Shown here: piece by piece, positions 4,095-53,181 of the stretch
Position numbering within the stretch: position 1 is the first letter of the stretch
How the letters are laid out: the number at the start of each line of letters is the position of its first letter
Origin: an uncultured Actinomycetes bacterium
Lineage (GTDB): Bacteria; Actinomycetota; Acidimicrobiia; Spongiisociales; DATADW01
DNA length: 64,000 bases
Assembly (NCBI GenBank): GCA_963780745.1
Contig: CAWACT010000010.1
Location: forward strand, 305,318-369,317
Reading direction: 5' to 3'
The notes under the pieces: generated by a model
What the model saw: only the letters and a program-made list of their open reading frames with translations
The model's database searches: none
What the model was told of the DNA's origin: nothing
Position numbers and translations under genes: made by a program

Positions 4095-5132
4095 CTACTC
4101 CTGGCGAGCGCGGCGCTGGGCTTCCCGGGATTCCTCGAGGATCGACTCAAAGAGTGCGATGGTGTGGTCGGGGTCGAGCCCATGGTGCTCAGCCTCGGTG
4201 CGGATGATTTCGAGCAACTCAGCCTCTCGAGACGGGGCGTAGACAGGTATCCGTCGTGCTGCCTTGACCCTCCCGATGGCGAGAGCCAGTCGGCGGCGCT
4301 CGGCGAGAAGCCGGACGATGTCGCGGTCAACCATGTCCACCTCGCGCCGCATCCGGCCGACCCCGAGGACGTCCATCAGAGCGCGGAAGCCCGAGGCGTC
4401 GAGTTGTGAGGGGCCGCCGCTGCGAGCTTGGTCCGGGTGGGCGTGGACCTCGACGATGAGCCCGTCTGCTCCCACTCCCTGGGCAGCGAGCGCCAACGGC
4501 GGCACCCGGCTGGTACCGCCGGCGGGACCACTCGGGTCGACCAGCACGGGTAGGTGGCTGCGCTCCTTGACCATTGGGATGGCGCCGATGTCGAGGGTCA
4601 CGCCATGGTCGCCGAAGGTGCGGATGCCCCGCTCGACCAACACGACTTGGTCGTTGCCGCCGTCCAGGACGTACTCCGCCGCCCACAGCCACTCATCGAT
4701 CGTTGCCGAAGGGCCCCTGCGGAGCAGGACCGGCTTGCCCGACGACCCCACGGCGCGGAGCAGCTCGAAATCCTGCATGTTCCCCGCCCCGACCTCGAGC
4801 ATGTCAACCCGGTCGGACACCGCTTCGACATCACCTGGCGCCGCAACCTGGGTCACCACCGGGAGCCCCACTTCCTTGGCGGCGGCCGCAAGCATGTCGA
4901 GCCCTGCCATCCCGAGCCCGGCGAAACCGTAAGTGCTCCCGGTCACGGTCCCCCCACGCAACACGGCGCCTCCCCCTTCAGCCACGGCGCGGGCAGCCGC
5001 CATCACTTGGTCGGGATCCTCGACCGAGCTGGGGCCGGCGATGACGGGGAAGGGATCGCGCCCGAACCTCACCGGGCCAACCGTCACCACCGTTGGCGGA
5101 CTCGATCCATTCCGCTCCGCTTTGCGCTCCAT
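4095..5132 (-). CDS. DAHP-synthase-like (type I-beta) domain with degenerate active site, fused to a C-terminal AroQ chorismate mutase
   Basis: 345 aa ORF. The N-terminal 260 aa are colinear with Thermotoga-type DAHPS, but the motifs read AGPSSVE (Cys lost), RGGTVTGSTYGFAG (KPRTSP lost), DPSG (His lost) and ARSGG (Asp lost). The C-terminal 85 aa, RREVDMVDRDIVRLLAERRRLALAIGRVK...SREAELL...ESREAQ, keep the AroQ signature residues. Confidence 0.8.
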   Translation of the reverse strand: MERKAERNGSSPPTVVTVGPVRFGRDPFPVIAGPSSVEDPDQVMAAARAVAEGGGAVLRGGTVTGSTYGFAGLGMAGLDMLAAAAKEVGLPVVTQVAAPGDVEAVSDRVDMLEVGAGNMQDFELLRAVGSSGKPVLLRRGPSATIDEWLWAAEYVLDGGNDQVVLVERGIRTFGDHGVTLDIGAIPMVKERSHLPVLVDPSGPAGGTSRVPPLALAAQGVGADGLIVEVHAHPDQARSGGPSQLDASGFRALMDVLGVGRMRREVDMVDRDIVRLLAERRRLALAIGRVKAARRIPVYAPSREAELLEIIRTEAEHHGLDPDHTIALFESILEESREAQRRARQE

Positions 5133-5135
5133 CCT

Positions 5136-5200
5136 CAGGCTCCTGCTCGTTCAAAGCCTGGGCTCCGGGAAATGAAAGACCCGGAGCCTTCGGCTCCGGG
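5136..5200 (-). promoter_or_regulatory. Structured 5' leader of the DAHPS-like/CM gene with mutually exclusive hairpins
   Basis: GGCTCCGG (5161-5168), CCGGAGCC (5181-5188) and GGCTCCGG (5193-5200): the middle segment can pair with either neighbour. A further stem CAGGCT/AGCCTG (5136-5141/5155-5160) encloses the AGGAG Shine-Dalgarno complement just before ATG 5132. Confidence 0.35.
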
Positions 5201-5334
5201 TACTCGGGTTCTGGCTGTGCAGATGGCTCTGTCTAGCGCGCTCCCTCGGCCCGGGCCTCAGGCCCGGTAAAGGCGAAGGTGGCATAGCCGTAGAGCTTGT
5301 CCATCGGTACGTGAAGCGTATCAGAGGAACACCG

Positions 5335-5359
5335 CAGACGGAAGACGGAAGACGGAAGT
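5335..5359. repeat. Heptanucleotide tandem array, (C/A)AGACGG x3 plus a partial unit
   Basis: cagacgg aagacgg aagacgg aagt..., located in the lgt / DAHPS-like spacer. Confidence 0.85.
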
Positions 5360-5406: not shown

Positions 5407-6303
5407 CTACTCCGGGGGGAGGTCTAGGGGTTCGTCGACTGCCGGTGGCGTGATGGTCTTCTCGGGGCGGCGCCCAAGCCACCAAATGAGGACGGCAGCG
5501 CCCATGGCGGCCACCAGCCCGGACACCTGGTTCCATGTAAATGGGCCAACGGTGGCGTCGCCCGAGCCGTACCGCACCGAGTCGATGAGGAAGCGCTGCA
5601 GCCCGTACCACCCCACCCAGAAGGCGAATAGCTGGCCGGGACGGCGGTTGACCCACACCTGGCGCAACAGGAGGAGCACGGCGAACAGCAGGGCGGCACC
5701 GAGCATGTCGTAGAGAGCGGCGTGGTGGTAGACGGCAGGCAGCCCGGTGGTGGTGTCGGTACACAGAGTTCCGACCGAACCGGTGCACTCCAGTGCGTCG
5801 TGCTGCGGAGCCAAGTCGTAACCGGCTTTGACCGCGAATCCGAGGAAGAAGTCGGTGCGGCTCCCCAGGTGTTCGACGATGGCGAGGTCGCCGATCCGGC
5901 CGATCACCGTCCCCAAGGCGAGACCGGTGGTCGAGGAATCGAGCATCGGCAGGACGGGAAGACCCAGCATCCGCATCCTCCAACCACCAGCCAGGATCCC
6001 CCCGGCGAAGCCGCCGAGGATGGAGAAGTTGCCGGTCAGGCTGAAGAGCGACCAGCTGAACCCCTCGTCGATTATCTCCGCCGGGATCGTGAGCAGCCTG
6101 GCGCCGAGCAACGCGCCGATCAGCCCCCAGGTGAGCGCCGACTGGTACCCGGCGCTGTCGAGCCCGCGGCGGCGAACGTCTCGGGTTGCGATCCATGCAC
6201 CCGCCAGGAACCCGAGGGCGGCGAAGACACCGTGCAGCGATAGCCGAAGTGGACCGACTTCGACAAGGGGTACCGGCGGATAGCTGATCAAGGCGAGGAG
6301 CAC
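5407..6303 (-). CDS. lgt: Prolipoprotein diacylglyceryl transferase
   Basis: 298 aa polytopic ORF: LSLHGVFAALGFLAGAWIATR...GRIGDLAIVEHLG...LYDMLGAALLF, colinear with Lgt. GTG start. Confidence 0.85.
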   Translation of the reverse strand: MLLALISYPPVPLVEVGPLRLSLHGVFAALGFLAGAWIATRDVRRRGLDSAGYQSALTWGLIGALLGARLLTIPAEIIDEGFSWSLFSLTGNFSILGGFAGGILAGGWRMRMLGLPVLPMLDSSTTGLALGTVIGRIGDLAIVEHLGSRTDFFLGFAVKAGYDLAPQHDALECTGSVGTLCTDTTTGLPAVYHHAALYDMLGAALLFAVLLLLRQVWVNRRPGQLFAFWVGWYGLQRFLIDSVRYGSGDATVGPFTWNQVSGLVAAMGAAVLIWWLGRRPEKTITPPAVDEPLDLPPE

Positions 6304-31407: not shown

Positions 31408-31799
31408 TGCCACCTGACGTGCTTGGACTGGCGGGCGTGCTGCTCTGGACATCGGATGAGCGGCACCCGGCGATGCGCGCCTTTTACGCCGAGACGCTGA
31501 GGATGCGACCCCGGTCCGACCGGTCTGGGTTCGTCAACTTCGAGTTGGGTGAGGCACGACTCACCGTGGCGGTGCACGCGGAGGTGACCGGGCCGGCACG
31601 AGATCCGCTTCGGATCATGGTCAACCTGTCGGTGGATGGGCTGGACGAGATGCATCACCGGCTGATGGACGAGGGCGTTCCTTGTCTGCGGCCCCCGGAG
31701 CGGGAAAGCTGGGGCGGGCGAGTCGCCACCTACACCGATCCCGACGGGAACGTCGTCCAGCTCTTCGAGCTGCCGGACAGCTCCTCCGATGGGGGCTAG
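31407..31799 (+). CDS. VOC/glyoxalase-family protein
   Basis: ATG 31407 overlaps the preceding stop (TGATG). GLAGVLLWTSD...ESWGGRVATYTDPDGNVVQLFE. Confidence 0.7.
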   Translation: MPPDVLGLAGVLLWTSDERHPAMRAFYAETLRMRPRSDRSGFVNFELGEARLTVAVHAEVTGPARDPLRIMVNLSVDGLDEMHHRLMDEGVPCLRPPERESWGGRVATYTDPDGNVVQLFELPDSSSDGG

Positions 31800-32815
31800 T
31801 CCACCAGCGAGAAGCCTTCGTCGAACAGCGCCCTGCGCAGCGCACCAGCCTCACCGGGCCGCACCGAGACGGCCAGCACACCGCCGCCACCATGAGGCGC
31901 GTGCCTGAGTTGAAGGTCTCGCACATCAACCCGGCTCGCGGCCAACGCCCTACCAACCGCGGCGAGCTCGCCGGGCTCATCGCGCAGCAAGACCTCGACC
32001 AATACGACCGGCGGTGCCAAGCGGCGTCGCCCATCCCGGGCCCGCTCGAGACGTCGGAGCACCGCCTCGGGTTTTTCGGCGGAGAGATCCAGGGACCAGC
32101 CTCCCAGCGATGTGACCAGCTCACCGAGCGCTCTCTCCACTTCAGTGCGGTTCTCGAGCAGCACCTCGGACGACCAGCCCGGCTCCGACAGGGCAACCCT
32201 GGTCAGGTCGCGGAAGCTGCCCGAGGCGAGATCCATGGCCTCGGGTTCTCCTTCCAGCGATTCGATCAGCGCTGCAGCAAGTAGCTGTGGCAAATGGCTG
32301 ATCACCGCTACCGCCCTGTCGTGGCGCTCCGCCGACATCACCACCGGCCGGGCCCCCAGCGAGGAAACCAGATCCGAGAGCTCGGCTATGTCGGCGGGTT
32401 GGGCGCCGTCGTCGCACAGGACCCAGGCCGAGCCGCGGAAGAGACCTGCTGAGGCCGCCCCAGGCCCGGCGTGCTCCCTCCCCGCCATCGGGTGGCCGCC
32501 GATAAAACGGTCGAGGTGCGCTCCGGCAGCCACCACCGGCCGCTTCACCCCGGCGACGTCGGTGACCAGGGCGTCGGTGCGGAGCAGGGCCAGATGGTCG
32601 ACTATGGCGGCTGGCGGCCCCGCCAGGACGACGAGATCCGCCCTGTCGTAAGCCTGCTCGGCGGACGATGCCACCACCCTCACCGCACCCATCTCGAGAG
32701 CCTCCTCCAGGGCGGTGTGATCGGGATCCCAACCCACCACCTCCCACCCAAGATCGCTCAGACCAAGCGCGGTCGACGTCCCGATCAGCCCGGTGCCGAT
32801 GACCGCAGCCCGCAC
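31796..32815 (-). CDS. tyrA: Prephenate dehydrogenase with C-terminal ACT domain
   Basis: MRAAVIGTGLIGTSTALGL...VTDVAGVK...GGHPMAGRE...SHLPQLLAAAL. Confidence 0.88.
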   Translation of the reverse strand: MRAAVIGTGLIGTSTALGLSDLGWEVVGWDPDHTALEEALEMGAVRVVASSAEQAYDRADLVVLAGPPAAIVDHLALLRTDALVTDVAGVKRPVVAAGAHLDRFIGGHPMAGREHAGPGAASAGLFRGSAWVLCDDGAQPADIAELSDLVSSLGARPVVMSAERHDRAVAVISHLPQLLAAALIESLEGEPEAMDLASGSFRDLTRVALSEPGWSSEVLLENRTEVERALGELVTSLGGWSLDLSAEKPEAVLRRLERARDGRRRLAPPVVLVEVLLRDEPGELAAVGRALAASRVDVRDLQLRHAPHGGGGVLAVSVRPGEAGALRRALFDEGFSLVD

Positions 32816-32817
32816 CT

Positions 32818-33832
32818 TCAGAGCGTGATGCCGAGGGCGTCGGCCAGGGCACGCATCTGGTCCATGAGCTCGGCGAACTCAAAGGGAAGCAGCGCCTGGG
32901 CCCCATCGACCAGCGCCGACTCCGGTGCGGGATGGACGTCCACCATGAACCCGTCTGCCCCCACGGCGATGGCGGCGCGTGCCAACGGGGCTACCAATTC
33001 GCGCCGTCCGGCGGCATGTGATGGGTCGATCAGCACCGGGAGGTGGGAGAGCTGCTTGACGACCGGAACAGCGGTGATGTCGAGGGTATTTCGAGCGGCC
33101 GTCTCGAAGGTCCTGATGCCGCGCTCGACCAACACGATCTCGTGGTTGCCCGACTTGAAGATGTACTCGGCGGCATTGAGCCACTCCTCGACCGTGGCGG
33201 TCAGCCCCCGCTTGAGCTGGACCGGCTTCCCGGCCGCCCCGACCTCGGCGAGGAGGCTGAAGTTCGCCATGTTCCGGGTCCCGACTCGGATCATGTCGGC
33301 GTAGGAAGCCACAAGCTCGACGTGTCTGGGGTCCACCACCTCGGCCACGAAGGGGATGTCGAAGGCGTCGCGCGCCTCGGCGAGTAGCTCCAATCCCGCC
33401 TCGCCCATGCCCTGGAACGAGTAGGGCGATGTCCGCGGCTTGAAGGCGTCGCCACGGAGCACTGTGGCCCCCGCCTTCTTCACCGCCTCGGCGGTGCGCA
33501 GAACCTGATCCCTGCTCTCGACTGCACAGGGGCCGGCAATAGGTGCGAAGCTTCCCCCTCCGATGCGTGCCCCACCCACCGTCACCACGGTGTCGGTGTG
33601 CTGAAATTCCCGACTCACCAGCTTGAAAGGCCTGAGCACCGGGATCGCACGTTCAACCCCCGACATGGCCTCCCACGGCAGTTGCTGGATCCGATCACGA
33701 TCGCCAACCGCCCCGATGACTGTTCTCTCGCGGCCGTTGGAAACATGCGCTTCACACCCGATCCGGCTGGAGCCGGTCGCAGACGGCGGCGACATCCTCG
33801 GCGGTGGCCACCGGCGACATGACGATGATCAT
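32818..33832 (-). pseudogene. aroF: 3-deoxy-7-phosphoheptulonate (DAHP) synthase, type I-beta with N-terminal ferredoxin-like regulatory domain; one frame shift
   Basis: Canonical motifs AGPCAVES, RGDAFKPRTSPYSFQG, DPSHAAGRRE, VDVHPAPESALVDG. The N-terminal MIIVMSPVATAEDVAAVCDRLQ (ATG 33832) is in another frame from GCEAHVSNGRERTVIGAVGD. Shift about 33765-33772. Confidence 0.9.
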
Positions 33833-52395: not shown

Positions 52396-53181
52396 CTCGA
52401 CCAGCGTCGCCGGCATCGGCTCGAAGATGGCGGCGTAACCGTCCGGACCAGGGGCGTGCATCAGGTCAACGAAGAAGCGGTGGCGCCACGCCTCTTCACT
52501 GGGTCGGGACTCGATCCGGGTCAGGTTGGCGCCGCGCAGCCCCAGCTCAGTGAGCGCCAAAGCCAGCGCCCCCGGCTGATGGAGGGTTATGAAGCTGATC
52601 GTCGTCTTGTCGGCGTCGGGCGCCACCGGCTCGGGGCCAGGGGCCAACACCGCAAACCGGGTGGTGTTGTGCCATCGGTCCATGACCTCGGTAGCGAGTA
52701 CCTCGAGCCCAAACCGCTCGGCGGCCATCTCCGGTGCCAGCGCCGCTTCGTGAGGATCGCCCTGCTCGGCCACCTCGCGCACTGCACCGGCGGTATCCGA
52801 CGAGGTGACCGCCTTCCACCCCCGCTCGGCTATCACCAGCTCCGCCTGCCCCAACGCCTCGGGATGGGACCGCACCCGCGTCACCGCGTCGAGCGACGAC
52901 CCGGGCACGCCGAGCAGGGCGTGACGGACCTCGAGCATGTGCTCGGCGACGATCGACGCCGAGGACCGGAGCAACCGATCGAGCACAGGGAGCACGCTCC
53001 CCGTTGTCGAGTTCTCGATGGGGAGAACCAATCGGTCGACGTCGCCTCGCTCGAGTGAGGCAAAGGCATCCGAGAACGAGGCCAAACCGGTCCGGGGGCA
53101 CCCGGGGAACAACTCGCCCACCGCCTGGTGACTGTAGGAGAGCTCCTCGCCCTGGTAACCGACACGGAGGGTCCGATCCAT
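52324..53181 (-). CDS. pheA: Prephenate dehydratase with ACT domain
   Basis: RVGYQGEELSYSHQA...LPIENSTTGSV...TRF..L...TSISF-like TTISFITLHQPGALALAL...NLTRIESRPS. Confidence 0.9.
   Translation of the reverse strand: MDRTLRVGYQGEELSYSHQAVGELFPGCPRTGLASFSDAFASLERGDVDRLVLPIENSTTGSVLPVLDRLLRSSASIVAEHMLEVRHALLGVPGSSLDAVTRVRSHPEALGQAELVIAERGWKAVTSSDTAGAVREVAEQGDPHEAALAPEMAAERFGLEVLATEVMDRWHNTTRFAVLAPGPEPVAPDADKTTISFITLHQPGALALALTELGLRGANLTRIESRPSEEAWRHRFFVDLMHAPGPDGYAAIFEPMPATLVELRHLGSYRAASTIGLGERGVEWS

Follow-up and report, generated by a model that had tools for sequence, protein, structure and literature searches.

The gene described here lies near the beginning of a stretch of 64,000 nucleotides (the window) covering positions 305,318 to 369,317 of contig CAWACT010000010.1, in the assembly GCA_963780745.1 of an uncultured bacterium of the class Acidimicrobiia. 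It comprises a single open reading frame (ORF) with an AGGAG Shine-Dalgarno sequence about 10 nt 5' of its ATG, and its homologs share the conserved N-terminus MERKA. The product is a fusion of two domains, an N-terminal barrel related to the type I-beta 3-deoxy-D-arabinoheptulosonate 7-phosphate (DAHP) synthases (DAHPS) and a C-terminal chorismate mutase (CM). Pfam identified DAHP_synth_1 (PF00793) at residues 20-247 (1.2e-51) and CM_2 (PF01817) at residues 261-339 (3.4e-20; 72.5 bits against a cut-off of 27). NCBIfam assigns the barrel to the Bacillus/Thermotoga type I-beta group, barely over the cut-off of TIGR01361 (270.6 against 267.75) and under those of PRK08673 (297 against 335) and PRK12595 (271.5 against 279). 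The closest solved structures are the I-beta enzymes of Aeropyrum, Geobacillus, Pyrococcus, Listeria and Thermotoga, with 54% identity between the barrel and the A. pernix DAHPS (1vs1). The latter was also the best Foldseek match of an AlphaFold2 (AF2) model built on 55 relatives (root-mean-square deviation 1.3 A, TM 0.92; mean pLDDT 89.6), in agreement with the original prediction that the TIM-barrel framework is kept. The model is less confident in, among others, the remodelled loops 61-70, 171-180 and 201-210, and places three CM helices at residues 260-292, 300-316 and 321-344.

The active site of the barrel was compared with solved DAHPS (1vs1, 5j6f and 4grs) in HMMER alignments and with the canonical DAHPS paralog of the same window in MAFFT alignments; substrate-binding positions (R92, K97, R99, R165, K186 and R234) carry the numbers of E. 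coli DAHPS(Phe). Three of the four metal ligands are lost: the Cys (AGPC to AGPS, S35), the His (DPSH to DPSG, G202) and the Asp (SDG to SGG, G239), E228 being the sole survivor. The KPRTS loop is remodelled from RGGAFKPRTSPYSFQG to RGGTVTGSTYGFAG, with two residues fewer; the KPR(T/S) motif that binds the phosphate of erythrose 4-phosphate (E4P) is not kept and reads TVTGST, the equivalents of K97 and P98 being deleted and that of R99 lost. The R165 equivalent is gone as well (GARN to GAGN, G117), and ATRNTLD is changed to HGVTLD. All of these changes had been read by eye in the original prediction, and both alignment methods reproduce them; to that list is added the loss of the K186 equivalent (LKRG to LRRG, R138). 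In total, four of the six aligned residues that bind phosphoenolpyruvate (PEP) or E4P are gone, the equivalents of R92 and R234 being retained. The 126 intact representatives found among 1.8 billion cluster representatives hold all ten catalytic sites. Their columns show full conservation (100%) at the R165, K186 and metal-Asp positions and 93-100% at the others lost here, so the substitutions are not due to chance.

Misalignment was rejected as the source of the substitutions, since HMMER, MAFFT and Foldseek are concordant and the sites are anchored by the motifs AGP, LRGG, ERGIRT, DPS and VEVH. Sequencing error or a pseudogene was rejected likewise, as the orthologs of three other species (L005-L007, 92-97% identical) present the identical substitutions in intact ORFs. 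With three of four metal ligands and four of six aligned PEP/E4P-binding residues missing, it is highly probable that the barrel is not a DAHP synthase, and the pseudo-enzyme proposed at the outset finds computational support in these losses.

The CM domain presents the opposite picture. It aligns without gaps to the E. coli CM (1ecm), with R262 matching R11', R279 R28, K290 K39, R302 R51, E303 E52, S335 S84 and Q339 Q88, and all seven residues are invariant in 55 family members, as expected from the AroQ catalytic pattern that had been recognised at the C-terminus. The equivalent of D48 is Ala. Membership in AroQ-delta, the weak mycobacterial type of CM, was rejected (TIGR01808 27.9 against a cut-off of 52.15), and the Lys39 equivalent is kept. 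By every feature that could be checked in the sequence the domain is an AroQ CM, and very likely it is both active and the housekeeping enzyme of the cell.

The genome of origin (12 contigs, 78% complete) contains a single CM_2 match, which is the fusion gene, and no CM of the AroH type. Of 15 related genomes, some of them complete chromosomes, 13 have no CM_2 match other than the fusion, and the same is true of 15 of 16 further genomes at least 95% complete, from 12 genera. In total, no other CM can be recognised in 29 of 32 genomes (its own and 28 of 31 relatives), which bears out the suggestion that the fusion may be the cell's CM. In 13 genomes checked no AroH-type CM was identified, and prephenate dehydratase was present in all 13 genomes tested for it.

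The decay of the barrel extends to the whole family. All of the 120 best homologs comprise barrel and CM, with the exception of P0003 (93% identical), whose C-terminal CM part is frameshifted; the named ones belong to metagenome-assembled genomes (MAGs) of Acidimicrobiia. A scan of species-representative genomes identified a relative in at least 141, from which 80 loci were fetched, sponge symbionts included. The original prediction had raised the conservation of the degenerate fusion as a question: decay was found throughout these approximately 200 relatives (120 proteins and 80 species loci) from Acidimicrobiia genomes, and not one still has the full set of catalytic residues. At the R99 position Arg is absent from all 200 homologs. 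The R165 equivalent is Arg in none of the 120 proteins and in seven of the 80 loci, all seven in a sponge-associated clade that itself lacks the Cys, the His and Lys186. At the position of this lysine 13 of the 120 proteins have Lys, with Arg as the most frequent replacement, and the metal Asp is present in 27. Independent losses of the metal Cys number at least four: Ser took its place in the window clade, Ala in a second clade, Arg in the sponge clade (alongside His to Ala) and Gly in a genus designated g8. Family-specific invariant residues have appeared: D26-P29, E123, R126, D146, W148, W150, L215, Q218-V220, L256 and G257. Judged from these alignments, decay of the barrel is a trait of the whole family, across several families of one order, and the window clade is one of the more eroded branches. 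As a separate observation, the ortholog of one related MAG (L008, 6001-7037) has a frameshift near codon 48, probably an error of long-read assembly.

The extreme case is genus g8 (G053 and G157), where a 40%-identical fusion (for example L087 1116..2267, minus strand, in G053) lacks every one of the four metal ligands as well as the R234 equivalent while its CM is intact. In this genus the CM of the fusion is the only CM and the fusion is the only type I barrel match at E <= 1e-20; a type II DAHPS (PF01474) was identified, and no I-beta DAHPS. A dead barrel in the company of a type II enzyme suggests that the barrel was retained for the CM and not for an I-beta DAHPS partner.

Selection on the barrel was estimated as the ratio of nonsynonymous to synonymous substitution rates (dN/dS, Nei-Gojobori) within the metal-less clade. 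The values were 0.059-0.098 for the dead barrel, 0.042-0.082 for the CM domain of the fusion and 0.044-0.086 for the barrel of the active paralog, the latter in genomes of the same four-species clade. The dead barrel is constrained as tightly as the active paralog.

The features of the window are collected in Table 1. The conserved upstream neighbours of the fusion are lgt and ctaB; in at least 60 of the 80 related loci lgt lies upstream in the same orientation, mostly as the immediate neighbour. Downstream, the window clade contains an F420/LLM-type oxidoreductase, named by reading its sequence, and a gene of this type recurs within a few kb of the fusion in 37 of the 80 loci. No aromatic-pathway genes adjoin the fusion among the loci compared. 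Elsewhere in the window are a prephenate dehydratase (PDT) domain and a gene for a prephenate dehydrogenase-like protein, an enzyme that uses the product of CM. Two canonical I-beta DAHPS with a ferredoxin-like domain were identified in the genome, one in the window and the other on contig 3. The supply of DAHP, as read from the gene content, comes from these two paralogs, and in genus g8 from the type II enzyme.

Table 1. Features of the fusion locus and of related genes in the window (nt, positions of the window)
Feature	Position	Strand	Basis or remark
Pseudo-DAHPS::CM fusion gene	4095..5132	(-)	Single ORF, 345 aa; ATG at 5132
Degenerate type I-beta DAHP-synthase TIM barrel, residues ~12-256	4365..5099	(-)	Pfam, alignments, AF2
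AroQ CM domain, residues ~260-342	4107..4355	(-)	Pfam, alignment to 1ecm
Third CCCGGAGCC copy and stem able to cover the Shine-Dalgarno in read-through RNA (predicted)	5136..5169	(-)	Minimum free energy fold
Predicted intrinsic terminator, ACCCGGAGC-CGAAG-GCTCCGGGT, then CTTTCATTT	5170..5201	(-)	Alignment of 30 loci
Leader ORF MDKLYGYATFAFTGPEARAEGAR	5233..5304	(-)	Short ORF, conserved; 2 Tyr and 2 Phe codons in 8
Predicted hairpin 1:2, ACCGGGCC-TGA-GGCCCGGG	5250..5268	(-)	Conserved; partial covariation, e.g. L022
lgt (prolipoprotein diacylglyceryl transferase)	5407..6303	(-)	Same strand, upstream of the fusion
Prephenate dehydrogenase-like gene	31796..32815	(-)	Assigned by reading the sequence; overlaps the stop of the canonical DAHPS
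Canonical ferredoxin-like-domain DAHPS paralog	32818..33795	(-)	PEP/E4P and metal residues present; Asp at the Glu-ligand position
PDT domain, without CM fusion	52642..53163	(-)	Contig 10, 357959-358480

The spacer between lgt and the fusion gene is of 274 nt and contains a 23-codon ORF rich in Phe and Tyr. With the criterion of at least three Phe/Tyr in a window of 10 residues, such a leader was identified upstream in 75 of the 80 related loci, most of them with 4-6 Phe/Tyr in 10 residues, and the consensus is ..RF(F/Y)(G/A)Y(F/Y)(V/A)FTGP... In the loci where a motif search located this ORF, the distance from the end of the leader ORF to the start of the fusion is about 73-142 nt, mostly 85-100; the peptide is absent in genus g8. 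A hairpin (1:2) lies at the 3' end of the leader ORF and is followed by the terminator, a 9-bp stem and T-run invariant in 30 of 30 aligned loci, where the closing pair covaries between A-U and G-C. Segment 2, GGC(C/T)CGGG, resembles by inspection the 3' arm of the terminator and is complementary to the 5' arm, with which it could form an antiterminator; the minimum free energy fold contains an alternative pairing with a third copy of CCCGGAGCC. No Rfam match was obtained in the leader at E <= 1.

The predicted layout of leader, hairpins and terminator is that of a classical attenuator, and control by the supply of Phe and Tyr fits a CM at the branch point. The predicted arrangement is like that of the pheL-pheA attenuator of E. 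coli (PMC3082878), where a short ORF with a run of aromatic codons, alternative hairpins and a terminator also precede a CM gene, but there is no sequence or Rfam similarity between the two and Phe and Tyr codons are mixed in the fusion leader. A survey of 2005 had recorded none for Phe or Tyr in Actinobacteria (PMC1262725), and the conserved leader would add a classical attenuator of this kind to the phylum. A short tandem array of cttccgt units (minus strand) occupies positions 5335-5359, in the interval that separates the lgt stop from the leader ORF.

A maximum-likelihood tree of 79 barrels (quick search, SH-aLRT support) grouped the 28 sampled pseudo-barrels in one clade (99), which is joined next by P0123 (98). 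This protein of 360 aa is the nearest intact relative, a C-terminal-CM fusion 52% identical over residues 7-342 that holds every DAHPS catalytic residue. Its gene is directly upstream of and overlaps a prephenate dehydrogenase gene (Pfam PDH_N and PDH_C matches), the same pairing of DAHPS and prephenate dehydrogenase as in the canonical paralog of the window. The leader peptide and terminator in front of it are also those of the pseudo-family, and hence it belongs to the same lineage. The simplest history suggested by these sequences is that a bifunctional DAHPS-CM under attenuator control underwent a single loss of DAHPS catalysis, via the equivalents of R99 and R165, and that the active site then eroded differently in each clade.

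Degenerate barrels were also identified elsewhere in the tree, in another C-terminal-CM fusion (P0204, 395 aa) and, among metagenomic representatives, at the C-terminus of P-proteins with the order CM-PDT-ACT-barrel (P0210, P0182, P0229, P0152 and P0178, 667-688 aa). Their scattered positions indicate that dead barrels on CM-containing enzymes arose repeatedly. A degenerate I-beta barrel is also present in P0249 (337 aa), a ferredoxin-like-domain protein.

The closest known relatives are PniDAH7PS of Prevotella nigrescens and PgiDAH7PS-CM of Porphyromonas gingivalis (PMC8408635, PMC12202928). Like the fusion and P0123, they consist of an I-beta barrel, a short linker and a C-terminal AroQ CM, with similar length; they differ in being bifunctional with a fully active DAH7PS, whereas in the fusion the DAH7PS site is destroyed and the CM site alone is intact. 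Both enzymes are held together by their CM dimer and have interdependent domains (PMC8408635, PMC12202928). In PniDAH7PS the CM domains dimerise and the barrels contact only the CM and not each other, separation of barrel and CM strongly attenuates both activities, and occupancy of the DAH7PS site allosterically activates the CM (PMC8408635). The 2025 paper on P. gingivalis described the C-terminal-CM fusion as specific to periodontal pathogens (PMC12202928), in contrast with a pseudo-fusion family that is found across Acidimicrobiia. On sequence grounds the family appears to be a pseudoenzyme version of the known C-terminal-CM DAH7PS fusions, from which it would descend, without their two active sites.

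The original prediction had compared the protein with N-terminal-CM and mycobacterial systems. The nearest enzymes are those of Prevotella and Porphyromonas, which it did not name. The N-terminal CM-linked DAH7PS of Bacillus, Listeria and Geobacillus (3nvt, 5j6f) also contain an I-beta barrel and an AroQ-type domain with interdomain regulation, but the order and the logic are reversed and the CM-like domain regulates an active DAHPS. In M. tuberculosis and C. glutamicum an AroQ CM that is weak by itself reaches high activity with a DAHPS partner, which it requires (PMC7762937). This complex illustrates how a CM can depend on a barrel partner, although there the partner is an active type II DAHPS, the association is non-covalent and the CM is AroQ-delta, whereas the fusion is covalent, has a dead I-beta barrel and is not AroQ-delta. 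In Shewanella oneidensis an aroA(I-beta) 'pseudogene' fused to aroQ-pheA was mentioned in one sentence by Song et al. 2005 (PMC1173090). That protein shares with the fusion a dead I-beta barrel covalently attached to a CM-containing enzyme, but its order is CM-PDT-ACT-barrel, with the barrel C-terminal, and the tree indicates an independent origin. A full-text literature search found no published description of a dead-DAHPS::CM fusion, the remark on Shewanella being the sole precedent (PMC1173090).

The explanation that accounts best for these data is that the gene encodes a housekeeping CM with an obligatory non-catalytic partner barrel, derived from a DAHPS and controlled by an attenuator; taken as a whole this is considered likely. 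The AroQ domain would be the catalyst and the N-terminal 255 residues a former type I-beta DAHPS, whose catalysis was presumably lost early in the history of this Acidimicrobiales family. By analogy with PniDAH7PS, the ancestor in Acidimicrobiia may have been a bifunctional DAHPS-CM with interdependent domains. Other DAHPS enzymes would have made its synthase role redundant, leading to the loss of catalysis, and the barrel itself could not be lost because the stability or activity of the CM apparently depended on it. The barrel probably holds or positions the CM dimer and would be needed for CM stability or full activity, and a ribosome-mediated attenuator would read the Phe and Tyr codons of the leader and set the expression of the fusion. 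From the comparisons above we infer the lack of DAHPS activity, the activity of the CM, the role of the barrel as partner, activator or scaffold, and the attenuation mechanism. A role of the barrel that is mainly structural or activating is slightly more likely than not; that the barrel also senses a ligand, which would not be mutually exclusive with the former, seems rather unlikely.

Several observations weigh against this explanation. The genome of origin, being 78% complete, leaves room for a second CM in this organism alone; G002 and G145 have a separate second CM_2 match, and G003 has an equal-scoring one on another contig that looks like a duplicate. The AF2 model is of a monomer. Finally, R59, R139, R171, E228 and H230, residues of the former PEP and metal site, are invariant in the main family, and a ligand may still bind there, in which case the barrel could be a sensor.

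The first alternative, rather unlikely too, takes up this last point: the dead barrel would be an allosteric sensor whose remodelled pocket tunes the CM by still accommodating an anionic metabolite (candidates being PEP, phosphate, prephenate, chorismate or an aromatic amino acid), the reverse of a CM-like domain regulating an active DAHPS. It is consistent with the equivalents of R92 and R234 and with E228, H230 and R139 being invariant in the main family, with the mostly conservative exchange of the Lys186 equivalent for Arg, and with the activation of the CM by occupancy of the DAH7PS site in PniDAH7PS (PMC8408635). However, the pocket eroded differently by clade, with loss of Cys, His, Asp and Lys97 in the window clade, of Cys, His and Lys186 in the sponge clade and of nearly all residues, including Glu and the R234 equivalent, in g8, and no common ligand-binding set is left; the residues that persist are also conserved in active enzymes and may be structural.

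The second alternative is that the pseudo-barrel forms hetero-oligomers with the canonical ferredoxin-like-domain DAHPS, which would place the CM next to the entry enzyme of the pathway and allow cross-regulation on the pattern of the mycobacterial CM-DAHPS complex. One or two canonical I-beta DAHPS genes accompany the fusion in most genomes, these enzymes are homo-oligomers, and many residues of the interface region are common to both types. Nevertheless such a partnership cannot be universal, since the two g8 genomes keep the fusion with the type II enzyme only; moreover, the fusion is unlinked to the canonical gene, its conserved neighbour being lgt, and the barrels of PniDAH7PS make no mutual contact (PMC8408635). 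It is regarded as improbable.

Still less probable is a barrel that remains catalytic, through residual metal-independent DAHP synthesis or a new aldol-type reaction. In its favour are the existence of metal-independent 3-deoxy-D-manno-octulosonate 8-phosphate synthases (KDO8PS) in the same superfamily (PDB titles), the strong purifying selection and the TIGR01361 score just above cut-off. The residues of the former active site vary by clade, however, which is unlike a conserved new chemistry. Moreover, non-metallo KDO8PS enzymes retain the Lys and Arg substrate binders, and K97, R99, R165 and K186 are all missing here. An assembly artefact or a gene in mid-decay has a negligible probability. 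The canonical DAHPS does show that this MAG has one or more probable indels of a single base, but the intact ORF with the same substitutions in three other species, the dN/dS below 0.1 and the occurrence of the family in at least 141 species-representative genomes stand against it.

Returning to the housekeeping CM with its partner barrel, a more specific version can be put forward tentatively, as a possibility with less in favour than against. The former catalytic barrel would have become the regulatory or activating domain of its one-time regulator, the CM being inactive or unstable without it, and its pocket would bind a pathway metabolite through Arg59, Arg139, Arg171, Glu228 and His230 and so tune the flux at the Phe/Tyr branch point. 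If this is true, a DAHPS barrel as chaperone or sensor of a CM would be a recurrent solution and an example of entrenchment after loss of function, as dead I-beta barrels are found independently on P-proteins and in another C-terminal-CM lineage.

The databases label these proteins '3-deoxy-7-phosphoheptulonate synthase' or 'bifunctional DAHPS/CM'. With such labels and a score that passes TIGR01361, metabolic reconstructions of Acidimicrobiia count a DAHPS that very probably does not work, and the effect on annotation reaches a large class of soil, marine and sponge-associated bacteria. The family also offers a graded natural series, from the intact sister through members with most metal ligands but without the substrate-binding residues to members with no ligand. 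This series is useful for the question of why a CM needs a DAHPS barrel, which is at the core of the work on interdomain dependence in Prevotella, Porphyromonas and mycobacteria. The dead barrel would be a clear example of dependency preserving a pseudoenzyme domain, with similar domains having arisen repeatedly.

Two further observations concern DAHPS genes other than the fusion. In the canonical paralog of the window the motif MVDVHP presents Asp where other I-beta DAHPS show the Glu metal ligand (VEVH). The original prediction treated this gene (32818-33832) as one frame, which does not hold: a 1-nt insertion at 33767 breaks it, and the first ~22 codons of its ferredoxin-like domain (MIIVMSPVATAEDVAAVCDRL..; 33832..33755) sit in another frame. 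The extra G is seen as tccaGccgg against tcca-ccgg in four related genomes, and the break reflects an error of assembly or else a genuine truncation of the regulatory domain at its N-terminus. The second observation concerns G097, a genome of a sister genus without a full-length match to the pseudo-fusion, which contains instead a CM-PDT-ACT-DAHPS protein of 684 aa (L085 1950..4004, minus strand) with the DAHPS site fully intact. By its domain content this protein would be a different way of supplying CM, and similar frames of 700-850 aa were identified in genera g2, g3, g9, g17, g21 and g27.

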